A DNA stretch of 35,442 bases, from the IMG/VR virus record IMGVR_UViG_3300031260_000108, positions 1-35,442 of that record, one strand, 5' to 3'. A model generated the notes under the pieces. The model did no database searches. It was not told the DNA's origin and worked only from the letters and a program-made list of their open reading frames with translations. Positions 14,709 to 27,950 of this stretch are shown here, piece after piece. Source of the stretch: a virus. The stretch's first letter is position 1; every line of letters starts with the position of its first letter. The position numbers and the translations under genes were made by a program.

Positions 14709-14930
14709 TCAGGCCTCATCCTGGCCCCCAATGTCTGAGGATTCCTCTCTGGGGAAGAAATAGTCATATGTGAATGCAAGTATCGAGAGCACAAGCGGAC
14801 TATATCCTGCAAGGCCCATTTTAGCCATGAAGGCCTCAATCAGGGCCGGATTACTCAGAAGGTACCCGTATACGACGACAACAACTCCTATGAGGTACGT
14901 GCTTAGTCTTCCATGGTCAACACTCATCAT
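14709..14930 (-). CDS. Small two-TM membrane protein (holin-like)
   Basis: Two hydrophobic segments and an acidic C-tail; RBS GGGTGAG. Confidence 0.55.
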   Translation of the reverse strand: MMSVDHGRLSTYLIGVVVVVYGYLLSNPALIEAFMAKMGLAGYSPLVLSILAFTYDYFFPREESSDIGGQDEA

Positions 14931-14947
14931 ATCTCACCCTACAAGAA

Positions 14948-15226
14948 TCAAATTATGGGTTCCCTGACACCCCAGTTCACATAGTTCTTCATGAAGACCT
15001 CGAGTATCAGTGGGAGGTACTCAACAGCATCCTCATCAATGTAGATGCAGACACCACCCCACTCATCAGGGATGAAACAGACGGCCACTCCGACAATAAG
15101 GGCCCCAAAGTTGAGTATGTCGCAGACCTCCACAGCGTCACGCTCAACCCACCCAAAACGATCCATAAAATCGATGAGTGCGGAGTTGAAGGCATCTAAA
15201 TGTTCCAGGATATCATCACTCACCAT
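14948..15226 (-). CDS. Hypothetical acidic protein
   Basis: 92 aa ORF with GGGGTGAG RBS, collinear with neighbours. Confidence 0.6.
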   Translation of the reverse strand: MVSDDILEHLDAFNSALIDFMDRFGWVERDAVEVCDILNFGALIVGVAVCFIPDEWGGVCIYIDEDAVEYLPLILEVFMKNYVNWGVREPII

Positions 15227-15243
15227 ATCTCACCCCAACAGAA

Positions 15244-15393
15244 TCAGAGGAGGCCCTCAGGTAGATCCATTCTCAACCCAGCAGTGTATGGATACACAGC
15301 GGCGAGGACAAGGCCACAGTCCTTGCAGACCATGTACCCATCCTCAGGGACATAATCCCTCCTCTGGGACCCGCATTGTGGACAAGGAGACAT
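15244..15393 (-). CDS. Stand-alone TFIIB/TFB-type zinc ribbon (start revised to 15393)
   Basis: CPQCG-x15-VCKDCGLVL matches TFB zinc-ribbon spacing; GGTGA RBS precedes the ATG at 15393. Confidence 0.75.
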   Translation of the reverse strand: MSPCPQCGSQRRDYVPEDGYMVCKDCGLVLAAVYPYTAGLRMDLPEGLL

Positions 15394-15873: not shown

Positions 15874-16709
15874 TTAGCAGCACACTCCTCTGCAGCGTAG
15901 ATTGGGGTGTAGTAATACCCTGACTTGCTTTTCACTCGTTTTTTTCCTGTTTTCACCACGCCATCCACGCCACGTATGATTGCGGTGAATGCGTTGCGTT
16001 TCATGTACCTTGACTTTGAGAATTTAGCGTTATAATTGTTTAGCACGACCTCCTCGTAGATTTCTAAGGCTGTGGATGGCCCATTACATTCCAGGTAATT
16101 CCTTATGCATCCCTCAAAGTCCTTCCTGCTTGTGAGTGGTTGTAATTCAATGTAGTTGGTGTGCAGATCTTCAAGTATCTCTTCTGTTGTCTTTGTCTTG
16201 AATATTGCTGGTTTCCTGGGGTCCTTTGTGTTCCCTATGACGATCCAGCCCTTCCAGAACCAGCCCACCCTCGTGGAGCATTTGCGTGTGATCCAATTAT
16301 AGAGTGTGTGGTATGGTACCTTCACCTGCCGGGCGAGGGTTTTTGTAGTGTATCTGTCTGGGTTGTGATAGGCATCCCAGTGCCTTGCAAGGGTGTAGAA
16401 GGGGATTCTGTCAAAGACTTCCTGTATTGTCTTCGAGTCGGCCTTGTGGAGTGGTTTTTTTACTCTGTGTTTAGATCGTCTCAGGTATAGTACAGGTTCT
16501 TTATGAGGCTCTGAGGGTGGGTATGCGTCTCTTTTGATTTTCTCAGCGTATTCATAGATTTTATCCTTATTATCTATGAGGATCTCTCTTATCATCCCAG
16601 AGATGGGTGCTCCTGTCTCCTGTTTCACGTTTTTAAGTTCGTCGAGTAGCGTTTTAGGTAGTGTTATTGATATTAATGAGTACATCCAGACCCGCCCCTT
16701 ACACATCAT
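15870..16709 (-). CDS. Multi-domain DNA-binding protein (RHH + HTH + winged helix)
   Basis: ISITLPKTLLDELK..ISGMIRE (RHH); TKTLARQVKVPYHTLYNW (HTH); C-terminal wHTH-like segment. Confidence 0.7.
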   Translation of the reverse strand: MMCKGRVWMYSLISITLPKTLLDELKNVKQETGAPISGMIREILIDNKDKIYEYAEKIKRDAYPPSEPHKEPVLYLRRSKHRVKKPLHKADSKTIQEVFDRIPFYTLARHWDAYHNPDRYTTKTLARQVKVPYHTLYNWITRKCSTRVGWFWKGWIVIGNTKDPRKPAIFKTKTTEEILEDLHTNYIELQPLTSRKDFEGCIRNYLECNGPSTALEIYEEVVLNNYNAKFSKSRYMKRNAFTAIIRGVDGVVKTGKKRVKSKSGYYYTPIYAAEECAAK

Positions 16710-16887
16710 CCTCTCTGAGGTATTGTTCTTCGAGGTTCACGTAGCTGATGTAGTATTCGATCGAGTCTGTGATTATCTCGCTCATGCTTAGCTTCACATC
16801 TTCATCCTTAGCCAGTTTCACAATCTCCTTCATGTACTCGTAGAGGTACTCTGGGATTGTGACTGTTGTTCTCACCTTCTCCATCAT
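16699..16887 (-). CDS. Ribbon-helix-helix transcription regulator
   Basis: RTTVTIPEYLYEYMK...SMSEIITDSI. Confidence 0.8.
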   Translation of the reverse strand: MMEKVRTTVTIPEYLYEYMKEIVKLAKDEDVKLSMSEIITDSIEYYISYVNLEEQYLREDDV

Positions 16888-16915
16888 ATCTCACCCCATT
16901 AATTTCCTTAGAGGT

Positions 16916-17623
16916 CTATCCCTCCATATCAGGGTGCCTGTACTCTGGCCTAAGCACCCCATCAACATATGATGCCCCCAGATGATCGAATTCACTATCA
17001 AAATAGGTAACCCACCTCGTCTTATCATACCCGAGAAGCCCTGAATAATCATCATAATGTCTGAGCAGAGGCAGGCCTTCATGGTATATGTATGCATATA
17101 TGTCCTCAAAACTCCAATCCCTTAGAGGGTAAGCCTCATGGGGGTCTCTGCGCGTGTCCAGGATCCTCCTTGTTCTTTTCCATCGTTTACGTGATTCATC
17201 AGCCCTGAAACCGAGGAGGACGAGGTCGAAGCCGTTGGCATCTATCAGGGATTTAAGTTCCACCCAAAAACTTGGGGGGATGCCTGGGATTTCCCTCTGG
17301 CTCAGCCTCCAACCTTCCTTCACCTTGAGGACTTTAAGGTTCTCTTTTTTCGCTCCGATCTTCATAGCATTCCTGAGTATCCTGTCCTTGATGTTGCGCG
17401 GGACGAATGCTGGGCCCCAGTCAGTGTGAACAACGTCAACGTCCTTTTCTATGAGGAGGGTTAAATGGAGGAGGACTGTGCTGTCCTTCCCTCCGCTGAA
17501 TGCAACGTATGGACGCCTGTAATCTTTGAAGAGTTTCTTGATGAATCTGAGGGTTTGGGCTTTGAGTTCCAGGAACTCGTCCCGGGTTGCGTAGATCTTC
17601 ATGGCTTCCTTGAATTTCCTCAT
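16916..17623 (-). CDS. cysH: CysH/PAPS-reductase-like adenine nucleotide alpha hydrolase (type IV-B accessory)
   Basis: PP-loop FSGGKDS, GFRADES and YPLRDWS motifs; no Cys residue in the protein. Confidence 0.9.
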   Translation of the reverse strand: MRKFKEAMKIYATRDEFLELKAQTLRFIKKLFKDYRRPYVAFSGGKDSTVLLHLTLLIEKDVDVVHTDWGPAFVPRNIKDRILRNAMKIGAKKENLKVLKVKEGWRLSQREIPGIPPSFWVELKSLIDANGFDLVLLGFRADESRKRWKRTRRILDTRRDPHEAYPLRDWSFEDIYAYIYHEGLPLLRHYDDYSGLLGYDKTRWVTYFDSEFDHLGASYVDGVLRPEYRHPDMEG

Positions 17624-18270
17624 CTTAGACCATTCATCCTTAGGTTAGTCATTAATTCTGCTATCTGTTCGAATTCCTTTTCTATCGCGTAGCATACGGC
17701 TCCAAGGTTCTCCGCGGCCATTATAGTAGCCCCTGAACCTGCGAATGGGTCGAGGATGATATCCCCAGGGACTACATAATGGCTGAGGAGGTGAGTTATC
17801 ATCGCGGGCGGTTTCGCCCATCCCTGATGGACATGTTTCATCCTCGACCCACCAGGTTCGTTCAGGTAGTAGGATTCGTTCATGGTTGAGTATAAGGGTT
17901 TATCAGTTCTGATGTGTTTTCTGCCGCCATTGAGGTGTACGATGTGGTATGAGTTAGGTATGGGTGTGAATATGCGCTTATTCGGTTTAGGCTTCATTAT
18001 TATCGTGTAATAATAGTTAACATAGTCATAGAATTCCTTTGTCAGGACTTTAACCTGTTCTGTTGATAAACAGATGAATGCAGCCCACTCATCATCCATG
18101 CACCTGAGGGCCTTGTTAAGCCAACTGAAGTCGTAGAGGTCAAATGGTGGGTCTGTGAAGAGGATGCCGGCCTTCTTATCATTGAGGAGAAGCTGGTAGG
18201 TGTCATCGTTGAATGCATCGCCATGTATGACCCTATGATCCTTGATTGGTGTCACAGCACCTGTTATCAT
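17620..18270 (-). CDS. DNA amino-methyltransferase (N6A/N4C, beta class)
   Basis: Catalytic motif IV DPPF precedes SAM-binding DPFAGSG; KP motif (WAKPP). Confidence 0.88.
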   Translation of the reverse strand: MITGAVTPIKDHRVIHGDAFNDDTYQLLLNDKKAGILFTDPPFDLYDFSWLNKALRCMDDEWAAFICLSTEQVKVLTKEFYDYVNYYYTIIMKPKPNKRIFTPIPNSYHIVHLNGGRKHIRTDKPLYSTMNESYYLNEPGGSRMKHVHQGWAKPPAMITHLLSHYVVPGDIILDPFAGSGATIMAAENLGAVCYAIEKEFEQIAELMTNLRMNGLR

Positions 18271-19016
18271 AGGGCCTCCCCTACTAGCTGATTCTTGGGG
18301 GCTATGCAGAGGTCTATGTTCCTCTTGTCCCAGTATGGTGGCTTATAGGCCATCTTCATAATCACCTGGCCCGCCCCTACAGGTAGGGGGACCTTCAGGC
18401 TTGTGGGGATGGGCCTCATCACCCCATACTCATCATGGTAGAAGCTATGATCCATCTCCGTCTCCCTGACCTTGAGTTTGAGGATTTTACCGCCGCCGAT
18501 GCCTGTCTTCTTCCCCAGGTGTGTGAGGTGTTTGAGGAGCCTCTCCACCTCCACTATGTCGCCACAGCCATAGAAAGTCACGGTGTCAGTGACTATTATT
18601 GGGTAGGTGATCATATGGTTCTTGTAGTGGCCGCTGCCTATACCATATGACCTGTTGAGTAGTTGAGGATGGTTCTCGATGAAGTAATCCTCGAAACGCT
18701 TATAGATGCGGGATGTTCTGAGCCTCGGGGCCCTATAGACGCCGACGCTGGCATGATACACGTCCCCCGTCCGCCTCAACGGGAGCTGCATGGAGCTGAA
18801 GTCGAATAGGTGGTTGGTGGGGATGTCATAGAAGTCCCCGCCGAGGGCCTCCCTGGTGCAGAGGTACTGGATGATCCCGTCGAGGTAGATCCATGCGTTC
18901 CCTGTGAATACTGGTGGTTTGACCCTGAATTCCGCCTTGAAGGGTGTGTGTGCATCCCCTCCTGGTTGGTAGGCGCTGATTTTATCCTGGATCCTGGCAG
19001 CAAGAGACATGATCAT
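18267..19016 (-). CDS. csf3: Type IV Cas5-family RAMP Csf3
   Basis: YHAS, FYGCGD, Gly-rich loop LGKKTGIGGG, RPIP and YKPPYW motifs; follows csf2. Confidence 0.88.
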   Translation of the reverse strand: MIMSLAARIQDKISAYQPGGDAHTPFKAEFRVKPPVFTGNAWIYLDGIIQYLCTREALGGDFYDIPTNHLFDFSSMQLPLRRTGDVYHASVGVYRAPRLRTSRIYKRFEDYFIENHPQLLNRSYGIGSGHYKNHMITYPIIVTDTVTFYGCGDIVEVERLLKHLTHLGKKTGIGGGKILKLKVRETEMDHSFYHDEYGVMRPIPTSLKVPLPVGAGQVIMKMAYKPPYWDKRNIDLCIAPKNQLVGEAL

Positions 19017-19858
19017 CGCCAGTTTGCCTGTAATTCATCAAGAAACTCTCTGATCAGGTCAGCCTTCTCCTCGACATACGAGAGGTATGTTGCCTCAGCA
19101 TCAGGGTCATAGTCATAGCGGATATCCAGTTTCCCGTACCCTGAACCGCTCTTCCCCCCGAGGTAGGGGCGTTCGCTCCACAGGTTCAATGCCCGGATGA
19201 AACATGATTCCTCAACAGGGTCAGTGTCTGTGAGTGTGAATTCATGATAGAACTTCGCACCCTTCACGATGACTTCGAACTCGTACTTCATCTGCGTCGC
19301 CTGCTCTCCATCCTCTCTGTCCTCCTTGTACTCCCTGAGACTATCAAGGCGGGTCCCGAAGTCCCTCGCCTTCAGGGAATAACTTGAAGGGCCATCGATG
19401 TCACAGTACTGTTTCTGCTGCCAGTAAAGTTCCTTGCAGATCGGTTCTGCAAGGTCCACCTTCAATTTGCCCTGGAGCATCTGATTGCCCAGGGCAGAAC
19501 CCCAGAGACTTGCTGGTGGGATGTACTTGCGGATCCCTGATTTGAGTTTCACGTCAATCATACCAGAGGATTTTGTGTTAGCCTCCAGGAGGCCCCCTGT
19601 GAAGAGAAAATGGTAGATCTTCGCTGATTTGAGGTCATAATCGAGTTGATCCAGGAAGTCCTGCATGACCAGGCGGCGGAGGTACCCCCTGATCGCATTC
19701 CCATGGATGTAGGGGACGTCCTCAACCCTCATCCCCTTCTCATCCTCTATGAGTGTGGGGAGTGTGAGTATGGGTTTTATCGTCCCATAGACTTCAGGGC
19801 CGCCGTGATGGATAGGTGTCCGGGCAGTTAACACTCCAGGGTACTTAACAGTCCTCAT
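19013..19858 (-). CDS. csf2: Type IV Cas7-family RAMP Csf2
   Basis: TARTPIHHG, GNAIRGYLRR, LFTGG, LWGSALGNQM and LGGKSGSGYG motifs. Confidence 0.93.
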   Translation of the reverse strand: MRTVKYPGVLTARTPIHHGGPEVYGTIKPILTLPTLIEDEKGMRVEDVPYIHGNAIRGYLRRLVMQDFLDQLDYDLKSAKIYHFLFTGGLLEANTKSSGMIDVKLKSGIRKYIPPASLWGSALGNQMLQGKLKVDLAEPICKELYWQQKQYCDIDGPSSYSLKARDFGTRLDSLREYKEDREDGEQATQMKYEFEVIVKGAKFYHEFTLTDTDPVEESCFIRALNLWSERPYLGGKSGSGYGKLDIRYDYDPDAEATYLSYVEEKADLIREFLDELQANWR

Positions 19859-20202
19859 ACTTCATCACCTTCATCCTCTGCTTTCTTCATTTTGAGTTTC
19901 TCAACAACTTCCAGGGCGAGTAGGACTGCGTAGTTGGTCTCGTGTCTGAGGAGGTTGAGTGCTTCGTCTTCGTTCTCTTTGAGTGTGTTTATGTCTTTGA
20001 GGCTGTGCTGGGTGAAGCTGACACCGCACATCCTGTTTAGTTCTTCTAGGAAGGATGTGATGGTGCTCATGCGGCTTGCTGCGCGCACACGGTCTGTGAA
20101 GTATGTGTACGCTGATTTCACACCAACTTTCTTCCATTCAATGTTCCTATACGTCATCGCAAGGCACTTTGCGAGGGCGTTTTCAGTCTTCTCATCAGTC
20201 AT
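19855..20202 (-). CDS. cas11: Cas11-like small subunit (start revised to 20202)
   Basis: All-helical ~115 aa between csf1 and csf2; GGAGGAGG RBS before the ATG at 20202. Confidence 0.7.
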   Translation of the reverse strand: MTDEKTENALAKCLAMTYRNIEWKKVGVKSAYTYFTDRVRAASRMSTITSFLEELNRMCGVSFTQHSLKDINTLKENEDEALNLLRHETNYAVLLALEVVEKLKMKKAEDEGDEV

Positions 20203-20203
20203 C

Positions 20204-20335
20204 CTATACGCCTCCTCCAAGTATTGCGGATATTAGGCCCAGGACTACGAAGAATAGTACTATTCCCAGGCAGATCATGGTCACCCATACCCCTATCCTG
20301 ACGAGGATGGGTGCCGGGTTCTTCTTTTGGGTCAT
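20204..20335 (-). CDS. Unannotated 43-aa membrane peptide MTQKKNPAPILVRIGVWVTMICLGIVLFFVVLGLISAILGGGV
   Basis: Translated by hand; GAGGTGA RBS; fills the csf1-cas11 gap; stop 1 nt before the cas11 ATG. Confidence 0.8.
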   Translation of the reverse strand: MTQKKNPAPILVRIGVWVTMICLGIVLFFVVLGLISAILGGGV

Positions 20336-20356
20336 CCCTTTTTCACCTCTCTAATA

Positions 20357-20980
20357 TTATGCCATGTCTATGAGTAACTCCCATGTGGGGTTACCCTTCA
20401 ATTTGTTTAGGGTGATGTTCAGGTTCCTGGCTTCCCTGACGGTCATGTCCTGTAGTTTCCCTAGGTTCACATCACCAGTCTTCATCTCCGTCTTACTGAT
20501 TCTGTATTTTTCTCTGAGCTCGTTAATCCATTCTATGGTCTGGACTGCTAATTCACGGCTTAGTGTATGTGTTTCCATGTCACAGGCTAATCTGATGATC
20601 TTCTGGTTGGGTTGGTTCAGGAGGCCGTCCATGATTATCCAGCCTATCTTCTTGTACGTCCTTGTCAGGTAGAGGTAGTATGGTTTGTCTGGTGGTTCTT
20701 TGAGGATCTGTGGGAGTTCTGGGCGTTTGAATGGGTGGAATTTGTCTTCTGTGAGGATCCACATTGTCCTGCGGAGTTTGTTGCTGTCTTTTTTGAGTGT
20801 CATGCAGTAGGGGCAGATGACGTCTCCTCTGCTTGTCTGGTCTGTTGTTGTGAAGGTTGTGCCGAGTCTTTTTTTGTGTCCTTGTCTGGTTTGTTGGTGG
20901 CATATGCAGCACGTTCCTTGTTCTTTGCCGGGGCTGGGTTCTTGTTTTGTGGCTTTGGTGTACATTGTGCTGAGTTTCAT
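20357..20980 (-). CDS. csf1: Type IV large subunit Csf1 (Cas8-like, Zn finger)
   Basis: CCICH...ICPYC zinc finger, RRTMWI and PPDKPY segments; first gene of the csf cluster. Confidence 0.82.
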   Translation of the reverse strand: MKLSTMYTKATKQEPSPGKEQGTCCICHQQTRQGHKKRLGTTFTTTDQTSRGDVICPYCMTLKKDSNKLRRTMWILTEDKFHPFKRPELPQILKEPPDKPYYLYLTRTYKKIGWIIMDGLLNQPNQKIIRLACDMETHTLSRELAVQTIEWINELREKYRISKTEMKTGDVNLGKLQDMTVREARNLNITLNKLKGNPTWELLIDMA

Positions 20981-21077
20981 GTTTTATCGTCTTTTTGTTC
21001 TGCTATTAAAAGTAAACGAGGAATAGAAAAGTATATATATTAGTATCCAGAATAAGGTATATCATGGAGTGTATAGG

Positions 21078-21110
21078 TGGAGGGAGGAAAACATTTATAT
21101 ACTCCCTCCA
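21078..21110 (+). promoter_or_regulatory. BRE/TATA promoter of the + strand early operon bracketed by a 9-bp inverted repeat
   Basis: TGGAGGGAG-gaaaacatttatata-CTCCCTCCA. Confidence 0.65.
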
Positions 21111-21126
21111 ACAGAATACACTCAAC

Positions 21127-21154
21127 GGGGTACAGGTGAAAACACCTGAACCCC
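21127..21154 (+). other. Stable hairpin GGGGTaCAGGTG-AAAA-CACCTGaACCCC
   Basis: 11 paired bases with one A-A mismatch, about 25 nt downstream of the TATA box. Confidence 0.6.
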
Positions 21155-21176
21155 ACAAGAAAATGAGGTGAGGTAG

Positions 21177-21887
21177 ATGGTGAATATGCGAAAAGAGATC
21201 GCGCATGGGGCCCTTCTCAGGGCCTCCATGGGAGACACCGTGGAGGCCCTAAGGGCCATCAGCGAATACAACCAGGATGGGGAGAACCCCTTCCCCATCC
21301 TCGAAGAGATCTCCATTGTGGGTGGGGAAGAAATACTCCACCCACAGGGGGAGGAGTTCTGGGAGGTCCTCTGGGACCTCTCAGACTTCCAGGAGGAGGA
21401 CGAAGACCTCCTCGAGGAGCATGCGGTAGACCTCTACCGCATAGCATTCGACCTGGCCCAGGCAGGGGTCCAGGTCGTCCTCGTCGCAGGGTCCTGTGGG
21501 CTCTGCGACGAGGAACACTTCTGGGTCGCCGCCCCGGCGGCCCAGGTTAGGGCCCTCCTCAGGAGGGTCCAGGACGGGGAGGTCCAGGATCAGGATCTCC
21601 CCGGACTCGGACGCATACCCGGCGTCCTAGTCGAATACGGGTTGGAAATCCTCCTACGGAGGATTCCCAACCCTGCGGGCGGCTTCTATGAGGAAGTCGC
21701 CAGGCCCATCACGGTCACTATAAGTGGCCGTGAGGAGGCCAACGGCGTCCACAGATTCGTGGACGTCGTCAGAGACGCCCCCTGGCAGGTAGGGGGCAAC
21801 TCTGGGGCGGCCAGGAGGCTCTGGGCCTCCTCAGAGTTCGAGGAACAGGCTGACTGGGGTGACATCCAGTTAGCCTGGGGGAGGTGA
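21177..21887 (+). CDS. Hypothetical acidic early protein
   Basis: 236 aa, GAGGTGAGG RBS, GC-rich codons; no recognised family. Confidence 0.8.
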   Translation: MVNMRKEIAHGALLRASMGDTVEALRAISEYNQDGENPFPILEEISIVGGEEILHPQGEEFWEVLWDLSDFQEEDEDLLEEHAVDLYRIAFDLAQAGVQVVLVAGSCGLCDEEHFWVAAPAAQVRALLRRVQDGEVQDQDLPGLGRIPGVLVEYGLEILLRRIPNPAGGFYEEVARPITVTISGREEANGVHRFVDVVRDAPWQVGGNSGAARRLWASSEFEEQADWGDIQLAWGR

Positions 21888-21893
21888 GGACAC

Positions 21894-22451
21894 ATGAACC
21901 TCACCATCCTAAAAAGAGAGGGTCAAGAGTTCCTAATAAGGCCAAAGGAACTCGCCGAAGCTATTTCTTTTGAACCCCACCCCAACGCTAAGGGGTGGGA
22001 GATCGTAAGGGTCGGAGGCATAGCCGCCGAGGATGATGTTGATTTTTACCAGCCCTACATGGGGCTGGGTAGGATACTTGTGGCTGCGGAGGTAGAACGG
22101 TGGCACTGGACCGGGACATGGATCCGGGAGGGCCTCTACCTGTACCGCAGGAGGGATGAAACCCTCACAGTTATCGCTTACGTCGAGTCCACTGGGAGGG
22201 TTGTGCCACTGTACAGGGTGGAGGGCCCGGTTGATGAAGGCGTAATAGCCTTCATCGAGGACTTTTATCGTGGGGTTCTCAGGTACGAAATCGACAGAAT
22301 AATCCACGCCCCAGGGCTCACCACCCTGGGGAAGTATAGGAAGCTATGCGGATGGCTCGAAGCACGGGGTCAGCTTAAATGGGCTGACCCTGAATATGTT
22401 GAGGAGGCGATTAACCTCCTCGAAGAAGAACTTGAAAGGAGGGAGGAATAG
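21894..22451 (+). CDS. Hypothetical early protein
   Basis: 185 aa, GAGGTGAGG RBS. Confidence 0.8.
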   Translation: MNLTILKREGQEFLIRPKELAEAISFEPHPNAKGWEIVRVGGIAAEDDVDFYQPYMGLGRILVAAEVERWHWTGTWIREGLYLYRRRDETLTVIAYVESTGRVVPLYRVEGPVDEGVIAFIEDFYRGVLRYEIDRIIHAPGLTTLGKYRKLCGWLEARGQLKWADPEYVEEAINLLEEELERREE

Positions 22452-22453
22452 TC

Positions 22454-22711
22454 ATGAAAAGAACAAAAGAGGAGCTGGAGATCATCCAGCTCGCCAATGA
22501 ACTCAAAGATGAAATCCTGGAAGAATACGAGGAAGCTGAGATGGCCTTTGAGGATGCCCTCAAACTCGTTGAGGACTTCTACTACCCAGAGGAACTCGAC
22601 GAAGACTCAGTAGCCATCCACTGGCTCAGCTATGAGGATGGTCAGACCGCAGAGGAACTCTTCGACCGCGTCATGAAATACATCGACGAGAGGGGTGGTG
22701 AAGGTGACTGA
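22454..22711 (+). CDS. Small, very acidic protein (DNA-mimic candidate)
   Basis: About 29 of 85 residues are D/E (hand count); GGAGG RBS. Confidence 0.75.
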   Translation: MKRTKEELEIIQLANELKDEILEEYEEAEMAFEDALKLVEDFYYPEELDEDSVAIHWLSYEDGQTAEELFDRVMKYIDERGGEGD

Positions 22712-22838
22712 GTTCACCTTCACCGCCAAACCTGACAGGCAGGGGAGGATATCAATCCCCATAGCCGTCAGGGAAGCACTCGGCATGAAGGATGATGAAG
22801 CTGTCCTCCTCGAGATCAGGGTGAAGAGGATAGTGTAG
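22704..22838 (+). CDS. Unannotated 44-aa AbrB/MazE/SpoVT-type DNA-binding protein
   Basis: Hand translation (GTG start) TEFTFTAKPDRQGRISIPIAVREALGMKDDEAVLLEIRVKRIV; D..GRI.IP..VR..LG motif. Confidence 0.85.
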   Translation: MTEFTFTAKPDRQGRISIPIAVREALGMKDDEAVLLEIRVKRIV

Positions 22839-22857
22839 TTTTATTGAGGTGAGATAG

Positions 22858-23043
22858 ATGAGTACAGAGAAAAGGTTCAGGTTATCCCATATTCTTGGGA
22901 TGACCTTGAACAGACACGAAATAGTGGACAAGATGTCCCTTGATGAGTTCCTCAGGGAGTATGACATCACTCCCGAGGAATTCACAGCTCTCCAGAAGGC
23001 CCTTGTCCTGGGCCGGTGGAGAGTCCTTAGGAGGGAGGAGTGA
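22858..23043 (+). CDS. Hypothetical 61-aa protein
   Basis: GAGGTGAGATAG RBS; collinear with operon. Confidence 0.7.
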   Translation: MSTEKRFRLSHILGMTLNRHEIVDKMSLDEFLREYDITPEEFTALQKALVLGRWRVLRREE

Positions 23044-24770: not shown

Positions 24771-25094
24771 CTACACCTTCACACAATCAATATCTTCAAT
24801 CTTCCAGATCTCACCACCAAACTCCCTAACCTGCTCCAGAGACAACTCCCTACCACGAAACTCCCTAGGAACACGAGGCAACACCACATGATAATACTCC
24901 ACACCCTTACGGAGCAACCTCTTGATGAGGTGGATGGGGAGGATGCCGTAGACAGCATCCCCCTTCTTCATGCGCATGATCATCTCATTACTAAGATGAC
25001 CTGCCACGAAGACGTCCCGGTCAAGGCCTTTACCATTCAGTTTAGCCCTCACCCAATCCACAGTACCCTGATGCCTTGTGATTATGTAATTCAT
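24771..25094 (-). CDS. csx16: Csx16-family CRISPR-associated protein, candidate cyclic oligoadenylate ring nuclease (start revised to 25094)
   Basis: IITRHQGTVDW, GHL, GDAVYGILPIHL, VEYYHVVLP and RGRELS match the Csx16 signature (SRHxGA.EW...GD.V.GTLPVHL...RG.ELS). Confidence 0.85.
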   Translation of the reverse strand: MNYIITRHQGTVDWVRAKLNGKGLDRDVFVAGHLSNEMIMRMKKGDAVYGILPIHLIKRLLRKGVEYYHVVLPRVPREFRGRELSLEQVREFGGEIWKIEDIDCVKV

Positions 25095-25351
25095 CACCAA
25101 CCACCACCTCTCTGCGCTATCTCCATCAGCACAGCCCAGCAGTGCTTGCAAACGAATGATGCCTCCGCCTTAAACCAGCGGTACTCATAGTCAGGGCAAT
25201 TACACTTGATCGTGGAATCAGTCACAAGGACACTGTACAGGTTATCCCCTGATTCTACCTCATAGAGACGACCCTCATCACATTCACCCTTGAATGTGGC
25301 CTTAAGCCTCCTCGCATTCCTAATCTTATTCATCCGAGTCAAAAACAACAC
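25094..25351 (-). CDS. SWIM zinc-finger protein
   Basis: CNCPDY...CKHCWAV. Confidence 0.85.
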   Translation of the reverse strand: MLFLTRMNKIRNARRLKATFKGECDEGRLYEVESGDNLYSVLVTDSTIKCNCPDYEYRWFKAEASFVCKHCWAVLMEIAQRGGGW

Positions 25352-26570: not shown

Positions 26571-27335
26571 TTATTCTCCTATGATCCGTGGGGCGAGAAG
26601 GAGATTCGCCTTAACCCCATTGGACGAGTATTCTAATCTGATGGGTTTCTCATTGTCGATATGGATTGTGACGGTCTCAAACCTGGGTAGGATGAGTGGT
26701 TTGAGTTTTTCTATTGTGAATCGGCTTAAGTATTCTCCATCCACTCTCTCCCCATGCACATGGCGGAAGATGACCTGGAAAGGATTGTAATCATTGCATG
26801 TCTTGAGATGTAGATAGTCCTCATCAACTTTTATGTCTATACTCTCTGATGATGTGAGGGCTGCGTCTTTGAAGAAGGATGTGATGATGTCTGTGTTGAC
26901 TGTGAGGGTTGCGTTTAATTGGAATGTGTCTATTTGTGCTGTTGGTGTGGCGTATTCTGTGTCAGGGCAGGGTATTGTGAACCTGGTTTCGCCTTTCTCT
27001 GTTGACCTGGTGATGATGAGGGATGTGGTGTTCTCTTCATCATCGGTTTTGTTGGTGATGGTGATTGTGTCTTCTCTTCGTGTGAGTTTCAGGATGTTGT
27101 TGAGTTCTTCAACAGGGATTATGATTTCTTCTTCCTCTGGGACTTTGTATGTTGTGAAGAATTCTGGTGTGATCTCTATGTTGTAGTAGGTGATGTGTGA
27201 GCCGTCCATTCCGGTTATGGTGAGGGATTCTGGCGTGGCGTGGATGGTGGCGATGTCAACGTTTATCTGTGTTAACATCTGTGTTATGCTGTGAAGGTCT
27301 GATGGGTTGTCTGTCTCGAGTTTTATGGCTTTCAC
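26571..27335 (-). CDS. pcna: Viral PCNA sliding clamp
   Basis: 254 aa; ITGMDGSHI, PIRLEY and terminal LLAPRI are PCNA hallmarks. Confidence 0.92.
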   Translation of the reverse strand: MKAIKLETDNPSDLHSITQMLTQINVDIATIHATPESLTITGMDGSHITYYNIEITPEFFTTYKVPEEEEIIIPVEELNNILKLTRREDTITITNKTDDEENTTSLIITRSTEKGETRFTIPCPDTEYATPTAQIDTFQLNATLTVNTDIITSFFKDAALTSSESIDIKVDEDYLHLKTCNDYNPFQVIFRHVHGERVDGEYLSRFTIEKLKPLILPRFETVTIHIDNEKPIRLEYSSNGVKANLLLAPRIIGE

Positions 27336-27660: not shown

Positions 27661-27950
27661 CCGGTAACCCGGGGTTTAACATCTTTTTTGTGGGTTTCCG
27701 GGTTATTGGAGGATTCTAATGTAAAGTAACCAAGGTAACCAAGGTAACCTATATATAAAAGGTAACTTGGTAACCAAGGTAACTTAGGGGTTTGACCAAA
27801 ATTTTTTTGGTATAGGGTATCACCCCTCAGGTTCAGGTTACCTTTTGAGGAAATCGCAGAGAACTCCTTTTTACTGAAAAAAAGGCTCTCCAGGCCTCTA
27901 AAGGTAACCTCATGGTTGAGGTTACTTTGGGTTACCTTCAGGTTACCTCT
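27661..27950. repeat. Iteron-like array, probable replication origin
   Basis: About 12 GGTAAC/GGTTAC units, 9-bp tandem periodicity at 27726-27785 around ATATATAAAA, with oppositely oriented copies at 27836-27948. Confidence 0.75.

Follow-up and report, generated by a model that had tools for sequence, protein, structure and literature searches.

What does a type IV-B CRISPR-Cas effector set do in the genome of an archaeal virus that carries no repeat-spacer array, and why does it hold a methyltransferase gene among its own genes? This question is raised by IMG/VR virus record IMGVR_UViG_3300031260_000108, which we analyzed over its full 35,442 nucleotides (nt; hereafter, the window). As of 2026, no function has been settled for type IV-B systems (PMC13676074), and published arguments centre on CysH. 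We found that the operon of this virus encodes a beta-class amino methyltransferase directly after csf3, a slot that is filled by different methyltransferases, by other genes or by nothing in related loci. We tentatively propose, with a probability of about 0.4, that the cassette is a counter-defence module combining a nucleic-acid-binding Csf scaffold with swappable modifying enzymes, which would most likely mark viral DNA before packaging.

The operon and its methyltransferase

The minus strand of 16916-20980 encodes csf1, a 43-codon open reading frame (ORF), cas11, csf2, csf3, the methyltransferase and a cysH-like gene. These features are as follows (aa, amino acids).

20981..21176, both strands: AT-rich putative divergent promoter region with TATA-like boxes on both strands
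20357..20980, minus strand: csf1, Cas8-like large subunit with a zinc finger, 207 aa (PADLOC Csf1_0_IV, 3.7e-28)
20204..20335, minus strand: hydrophobic ORF with a ribosome-binding site, 43 aa, between csf1 and cas11
19855..20202, minus strand: cas11, small subunit, 115 aa, with its true start at 20202 (PADLOC Cas11_0_IV, 1.1e-23)
19013..19858, minus strand: csf2, Cas7 backbone subunit, 281 aa (PADLOC Csf2_0_IV, 9.7e-69)
18267..19016, minus strand: csf3, Cas5 subunit, 249 aa (PADLOC Csf3_0_IV, 1.1e-46; PDB Csf3 8rc3, 2.6e-10)
17620..18270, minus strand: beta-class amino (N6-adenine or N4-cytosine) methyltransferase, 216 aa (PF01555, 8.6e-14)
16916..17623, minus strand: cysH-like gene (CasCysH), PP-loop protein, 235 aa (PF01507, 9.4e-16)

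The five genes named in the original prediction (csf1, cas11, csf2, csf3 and the cysH-like gene, all on one strand) were recovered where it had placed them. Its gene list lacked the 43-codon ORF between csf1 and cas11. It had also described 4-nt ATGA overlaps from cas11 through cysH: overlaps of this kind are indeed found at all four junctions (cas11/csf2, csf2/csf3, csf3/methyltransferase and methyltransferase/cysH), but csf3 does not abut cysH since the methyltransferase lies between them and overlaps each by 4 nt. Elsewhere in the genome, such overlaps occur at only 6 of 45 junctions, and the pattern of the operon would be expected by chance with a probability of ~3e-4. The operon heads a strand that continues into the terminase and virion genes, and its six genes are intact and translationally coupled. 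The putative promoter region contains a 9-bp inverted repeat around the plus-strand TATA box, with a similar layout in a distant relative (L038:2700-2760); small acidic genes occupy 21177-23043, and this repeat likely serves as the site of their repressor. A promoter scan of the window, built for bacterial promoters, was uninformative. The 43-aa ORF was considered as a membrane subunit and rejected: it is intact in L012, L013 and L018, frameshifted in the close relatives L006 and L010 and absent from L128 and L133, its presence in the cassette being unstable.

The assignment to type IV-B held in a hidden Markov model search, where type IV models of PADLOC were the best match for all four Cas proteins (Csf1, Cas11, Csf2 and Csf3). 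None of the four proteins reaches the cut-offs set for the TIGR type IV (AFERR) models; the scores for TIGR03114-6 are 34.5, 54.1 and 67.7, against cut-offs of 140, 130 and 140. The gene content is that of subtype IV-B: the csf1/csf2/csf3 core is accompanied by cas11 and by a cysH-like gene whose product lacks cysteine. The dinG gene, cas6/csf5 and array of subtype IV-A were not found and cas11 is present, and a 207-aa Csf1 takes the place of the Cas10-like large subunit with an HD nuclease that is typical of subtype IV-C. As predicted originally, no Cas1, Cas6 or DinG-type match and no array were detected in the window; Cas2, also said to be absent, was not the object of a separate search. 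No copy of the host repeat was found in the window either: the closest ungapped match lies at a ribosome-binding site and has 10 mismatches, relative to 11-13 in shuffled sequences. An exact-repeat scan of the window and of the related loci L001-L076 revealed no array or mini-array. The window yielded no Rfam match, neither the window nor eight related loci contain transfer RNA (tRNA) genes, and the genome offered no candidate for a viral guide RNA. Judging from sequence, the locus is a genuine array-less type IV-B set by every gene-content criterion that can be tested.

The methyltransferase presents the motif DPPF at residues 40-43 and DPFAGSG at residues 174-180, i.e., motif IV before motif I. 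Its structural model (predicted local distance difference test, pLDDT, 86) resembles M.MboIIA (1g60; Z 20.7, root-mean-square deviation, rmsd, 3.9, 187 aligned residues) and also CcrM and M1.HpyAVI. It is a complete beta-class amino methyltransferase of the N6-adenine or N4-cytosine type, with predicted activity on DNA. Enzymes of this class methylate N6-adenine or N4-cytosine using S-adenosylmethionine. The idea that the protein is too small for target recognition was rejected, the spacing of motifs IV and I being 135 residues against 122-134 in free-standing relatives. We further compared it to the orphan methylases of the viral ParB-methyltransferase family (PF02195 + PF01555), with which it shares fold, motif order, spacing and genomic region. 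Members of this wider family are 350-450 aa long, match ParB_N in 15 of 49 aligned cases and include examples just upstream of terminase genes. In contrast, the enzyme of the window corresponds to the stand-alone catalytic domain without the N-terminal ParB-like domain, evolves on a long branch and is coupled inside a Cas operon. Moreover, its neighbours are csf3 and cysH and no cognate endonuclease lies beside it, unlike in a type II restriction-modification system. Among 1.84e9 protein representatives, its nearest clusters are its own, P0127 and P0128, all located directly after csf3 in type IV-B loci. Relative to L007, the ratios of nonsynonymous to synonymous substitution rates (dN/dS) are 0.14 for csf2, 0.11 for csf3, 0.14 for the methyltransferase and 0.17 for cysH. 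The methyltransferase is thus under purifying selection, like the csf genes, and it diverged together with csf3 (dS ~1.1 each). Counts of k-mers revealed no target for the enzyme.

The slot after csf3 in related loci

We identified 174 Csf2 homologs, and the type IV-B module is common in viruses of Methanobacteriales. A scan of viral contigs returned no match with a single Csf2 query and 10 loci with a Csf2 alignment as query. At 90% identity, 31 Csf2 lineages were distinguished, of which 30 were checked for the content of the slot: an intact methyltransferase is found in eight, a decayed one in one, IbrA with ParB or GNAT genes in four, cas6 in two and nothing in 15. The methyltransferases are of three kinds, namely the subfamily of the window, a second beta-class subfamily whose motif is DPPW or DSPW, and a SPOUT-fold protein. 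Within a single Csf2 cluster at 80% identity, the slot contains four different methyltransferase sets or none. This pattern hints that type IV-B systems help to mark nucleic acids chemically.

In a Csf2 tree built only from the relatives found in this analysis, without a reference Cas7 set, the clade of the window groups with L038 (methyltransferase), L128 (none), L030 (remnant) and L040 (none), which suggests that an ancestral methyltransferase may have been lost more than once. The approximately unbiased test (p 0.44) did not separate one origin from two for the methyltransferases of the window and L038 on one side and of L033 and L115 on the other. The sister lineage L038/L133 belongs to the same virus family and is syntenic with the window (TerL 46% and capsid 43% identity); its methyltransferase is present on 15 contigs. 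In L133 (3034-4073) and in L134-L138, the operon reads csf1-cas11-csf2-csf3-methyltransferase without cysH, and no cysH was found in this lineage across ~14 kb, a stretch that starts ~2.9 kb upstream of csf1 and includes the capsid gene.

The SPOUT-fold protein (TM-score 0.74 to SpoU) occupies the slot of L024, L053, L057, L129 and L130. It is encoded by an unannotated gene of 127-166 aa in the csf3-cysH interval (L024:9248-9748, L053:3470-3949, L129:9646-10029, L130:9565-10029), with cas6 following cysH. Since one lineage thus carries a SPOUT RNA methyltransferase in the slot, RNA would be a second substrate option for the proposed module. It is even conceivable, if unlikely, that RNA is the only substrate: a Csf filament would present host tRNA or small RNAs to CysH and the methyltransferase, shielding translation from the anticodon nucleases of the host or adjusting it to the late genes. 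GNAT genes in the slot of other loci, the weak reach of the CysH profile to the tRNA-modifying PP-loop enzymes TilS and QueC and the binding of mixed small RNAs by Csf2 (PMC7937560) are all consistent with this view. However, the methyltransferase of the window is far closer to DNA methyltransferases (Z 17-21) than to the RNA enzymes METTL3 and METTL4 (Z 10-12), its family adjoins terminase genes and no tRNA genes were found in the window or in the eight related loci.

Several observations weigh against a marking module. Motifs IV and I are separated by 135 residues, against 122-134 in free-standing relatives, so that the methyltransferase need not depend on the Csf proteins. The slot is empty in 15 of the 30 lineages, including the close relative L128 (Csf2 67%), and its gene is decayed in L030/L031 (a 70-aa remnant in L030), which indicates that the type IV-B core does not need the enzyme. 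Likewise, a near-identical virus, L036, lacks the equivalent of 16488-18967 (most of csf3, the methyltransferase, cysH and a ribbon-helix-helix gene) through a 2.5-kb deletion, seen on a single contig. As a control, we looked at the available terminase flanks of 80 related viral contigs: 13 of them have a gene of the ParB/methyltransferase family upstream of the terminase, none with type IV-B genes; because such genes are common at this place, a resident gene may have been captured by position. Finally, the depletion of CTAG sites described below does not identify the target of the enzyme. The repeated presence of unrelated methylases at one junction nevertheless appears to exceed what position alone would predict, even though the lineages are not independent of one another.

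What is new here is the type IV-B-linked subfamily of beta-class methyltransferases, the exchange of methylases in one slot and a series formed by nature in viruses of Methanothermobacter, a host genus that is in culture and for which genetic tools exist. Within this one genus, the series comprises the methyltransferase with CysH (window), CysH only (L128), the methyltransferase only (L133), a decayed methyltransferase (L030) and, in L036, the loss of the distal half of the operon. A methyltransferase mark can be read by single-molecule sequencing, so its dependence on csf genes or on CRISPR RNAs (crRNAs) is easily tested; if the methyltransferase acts alone, the cassette would be an ordinary anti-defence bundle. 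Our literature searches found no paper discussing a methyltransferase inside type IV-B operons. Going by one figure legend of 10.1101/270033, which has an N6-methyltransferase among the neighbours of type I-E and type IV loci, such a gene may have been drawn before.

Two further arrangements were observed among the related loci. In L030, L031 and L039-L043, the genes are rearranged to cas11-csf2-csf3-cysH-csf1; two of the contigs were assigned to bacterial metagenome-assembled genomes (Patescibacteria and Synergistaceae) and may be mis-binned viral contigs, a close Csf2 being labelled Methanothermobacter. L115 (1094-1784) contains HNH/NUMOD3 homing endonuclease-like ORFs between cas11 and csf2.

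Csf proteins, host defences and the proposed role

The Csf1, Cas11, Csf2 and Csf3 families assemble on small RNA. In the window, Csf1 contains two CxxC pairs whose four cysteines are invariant in 31 homologs, and its model (pLDDT 94) resembles the type IV-A Csf1 7xfz_A end to end (Z 12.3, rmsd 3.8, 191 aligned residues). Among solved structures, Csf2 matches first the type IV-C Cas7c (11fs; 4e-23) and then the type IV-B Csf2 (7jhy; 5e-10). No conserved Asp is found in the loop that holds the catalytic Asp of Csm3 (loop columns placed by eye), which makes RNA cutting by Csf2 unlikely.

The fold of the DNA-binding type IV-A Csf1 is retained in full by its counterpart in the window, and the best solved relative of Csf2 belongs to a type IV-C complex that binds double-stranded DNA and takes its crRNAs from distinct arrays (PMC13676074); both observations would be compatible with RNA-guided methylation or silencing by the cassette. 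Host-processed crRNAs would then be borrowed, as in type IV-C, matching double-stranded DNA would be bound through Csf1 and Csf3, and the methyltransferase and CysH would be recruited to the virus's own protospacers, to competing elements or to host genes. The lack of a ParB-like domain in the methyltransferase and its coupling on both sides also point in this direction. We consider this improbable, since neither an array nor a solitary repeat nor cas6 was found in this genome, the recognition region of the methyltransferase is not reduced, the gene is absent from half of the lineages and a shared Csf1 fold does not show DNA binding. Equally doubtful is the broader notion of type IV-B as an RNA-programmed modification platform, in which exchangeable CysH, beta-class or SPOUT methyltransferases and IbrAB would be directed to sites matching crRNAs. 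If it were true, the virus would encode a natural RNA-guided DNA methyltransferase and CysH would be replaceable by a methylase.

Cys-less PP-loop enzymes adenylate their substrates. In CysH, the motif SGGKDS is invariant in 33 homologs, whereas the protein contains no Cys and no Cys column is conserved. The absence of Cys and scores far below the NCBIfam cut-offs set it apart from true PAPS/APS reductases and DndC sulfurtransferases, and roles in sulfate assimilation and phosphorothioation were rejected on the lack of cysteines. A PP-motif without a catalytic cysteine is the published criterion for type IV-B cysH, and the retained motif fits the adenylating role proposed for CasCysH, for which modification of the bound nucleic acid has been hypothesised (all PMC8175902). 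A predicted complex of Csf3, CysH and the methyltransferase scored 0.00 for the methyltransferase against a mark of 0.32 and was not used as evidence.

We suppose that, in the counter-defence module, the Csf complex would load any available small RNA, host crRNA or other, and bind but not cut nucleic acid, and would share its pathway with CysH and the methyltransferase. The likeliest substrate would be viral DNA fresh from replication, which would receive its mark ahead of packaging and would in this way be spared by host restriction and CRISPR nucleases. The methyltransferase may be an optional component that has shed its ParB-like loading domain but probably still recognizes, by itself, a short or relaxed sequence.

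The defences that such a module would face are visible in the hosts. We compared 494 spacers of the Methanobacteriales genomes G321-G329 to the virus and obtained matches with 0-7 mismatches for 11 of them, against none in two shuffles; nine of the 11 present a 5' CCN motif, eight come from G322 and three from G327. The cassette is not enriched in matches (2 of 11 against 1.3 expected), and two host spacers target the methyltransferase gene. We take the spacer-bearing hosts to be Methanothermobacter from their repeat and their viral relatives. They possess large arrays, with Cas3 in G322 and both Cas3 and Csm1 in G327. CTAG avoidance is common in prokaryotes, and the virus contains 15 CTAG sites where 62 are expected. 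A second contig of G322, the genome with the most spacer matches, encodes an MjaI-family endonuclease with a 355-aa beta-class methyltransferase (C2; L225:628-2313). The MjaI family and MthZI cut CTAG (PMC11033074).

A further gene of the virus may act against these hosts:

24771..25151, minus strand: Csx16 ring-nuclease homolog, separate from the operon, with its start probably near 25094 (PF09652, 1e-30)

It presents 81-82% nucleotide identity to genes of the hosts G322 and G327. The Csx16 family degrades cyclic tetra-adenylate (cA4; 10.1101/2024.09.24.614671), and a published survey found it in only two of 28,114 phage genomes. The Csx16 of the window is a candidate anti-type III factor.

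These hosts also lend weight to a close rival of the module, which we regard as a serious if still tentative possibility: an anti-defence bundle in which the Csf complex is a crRNA sponge that starves the host type I and III-A systems and the methyltransferase is an independent orphan anti-restriction methylase, the two sharing a promoter only because they are needed at the same time. Large host arrays with Cas3 or Csm1, the 11 matching spacers and the host-like Csx16 agree with it, as do cas6 genes beside cysH in several related loci and the near-perfect solitary host repeat of L128. The same holds for the optional nature of the methyltransferase, its recognition region of normal size and the commonness of methyltransferases ahead of terminases. 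However, this bundle accounts neither for the near-constant presence of CysH, nor for the recurrence of unrelated methyltransferases at a single junction within the operon, nor for the lineage that has a methyltransferase instead of cysH. Moreover, the complex of Mycobacterium sp. JS623 showed no preference for co-expressed crRNAs (PMC8175902), and Pinilla-Redondo et al. judged a sponge of this complexity unlikely. We count in favour of the module the relatives of the methyltransferase after csf3, the recurrence of methylases in the slot, the lineage with a methyltransferase and without cysH, purifying selection, the MjaI-family pair of the host and CTAG depletion. The original prediction had offered three roles (sequestration of host crRNAs, binding of a non-CRISPR viral RNA or guided DNA modification): modification gains the most from the methyltransferase and its variable slot, the sponge stays close behind and the viral guide RNA did not materialize in our searches.

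The solitary repeat of L128 (4714-4744) is a host CRISPR repeat with one inserted base, located 1.1 kb after cysH and with no second copy before the end of the contig. It is a candidate RNA anti-CRISPR or guide source.

The virus, its cassette and known systems

The record is linear and ~99% complete (CheckV), although it may lack a few kb given that relatives reach 36-40 kb. It encodes a terminase, a Mu-type portal, a tape measure protein and a pseudomurein endoisopeptidase-like gene, and its TerL is 44-47% identical to those of psiM100, psiM2 and PhiF3. Together with the host spacers, these genes bear out its identification as a tailed virus of methanogens, which we take to be a siphovirus of Methanothermobacter. 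No match to Csf2 was found in the cultured relatives psiM2, psiM100 and PhiF3.

The original prediction had left room for a chimeric join, and this doubt is dispelled. The cassette recurs in several samples at 89-99.8% identity (99% in L010, L012 and L037; 89-91% in L006 and L007), with two kinds of portal genes (head modules) and four different downstream neighbours, and it is not a chimeric join. Relative to L007, csf1 and cas11 are almost identical, unlike csf2, csf3, the methyltransferase and cysH, which indicates recombination inside the cassette. The L036 deletion has its junction at L036:8888, where a 4-nt TACC microhomology fuses the start of csf3 in frame to a downstream gene on that single contig. 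This deletion and the absence of Csf2 from psiM2, psiM100 and PhiF3 might suggest a neutral passenger or an assembly artefact. Yet all frames are intact, dN/dS is 0.11-0.17 and the cassette is found in many samples and with both head-module types among 174 Csf2 homologs, so that selection and recurrence largely refute this explanation, which we regard as very improbable.

An array-less IV-B operon in an archaeal virus is not new in itself, contrary to what the original prediction implied. The set csf1-cas11-csf2-csf3-cysH was described without an array in the Methanoperedens virus Mp_virus_41kb_42_49 (10.1101/2023.08.02.551345), also with a non-canonical cysH and with a proposed anti-CRISPR role. 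No methyltransferase internal to the operon was described there, however, and the host of the window belongs to a cultured thermophilic genus of Methanobacteriales. Fuxiviridae, which infect Bathyarchaeia (PMC10541130; PMC10848311), also carry a IV-B effector with a CysH-like gene, and a host spacer targets their cassette; in contrast to the window, the fuxivirus has a mini-array, CysH adjoins csf3 and the DNA methyltransferase stands alone elsewhere.

More distant systems share parts of this organization. Mycobacterium sp. JS623 (PDB 7JHY; PMC7937560) has the same four subunits (Csf2 E-value 5e-10) and a CysH without the catalytic cysteine, but its system is plasmid-borne and without a coupled methyltransferase, and its Csf2 presents a putative catalytic Asp42 where, by eye, the clade of the window has no conserved Asp. 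The type IV-C1 system of Pyrococcus abyssi (PDB 11FS; PMC13676074) provides the best solved match to Csf2 (4e-23), possesses Cas11 and uses crRNAs from distinct arrays, whereas its Cas10-like HD nuclease subunit contrasts with a 207-aa Csf1 without a nuclease domain here.

Finally, we noted several features outside the operon. A motif containing a ribosome-binding site is repeated at gene starts (14917-14950, 15213-15246 and 16877-16899), and L012 joins the copy at 16882 to the copy at 14939, with the loss of five genes that otherwise separate cysH from the terminase region. The virus encodes a PCNA homolog on the minus strand (26571-27335; PF00705, 2e-8). Lastly, a short AT-rich region of 9-bp tandem repeats at 27723-27786, beside a 657-aa gene of unknown function, is a possible replication origin.

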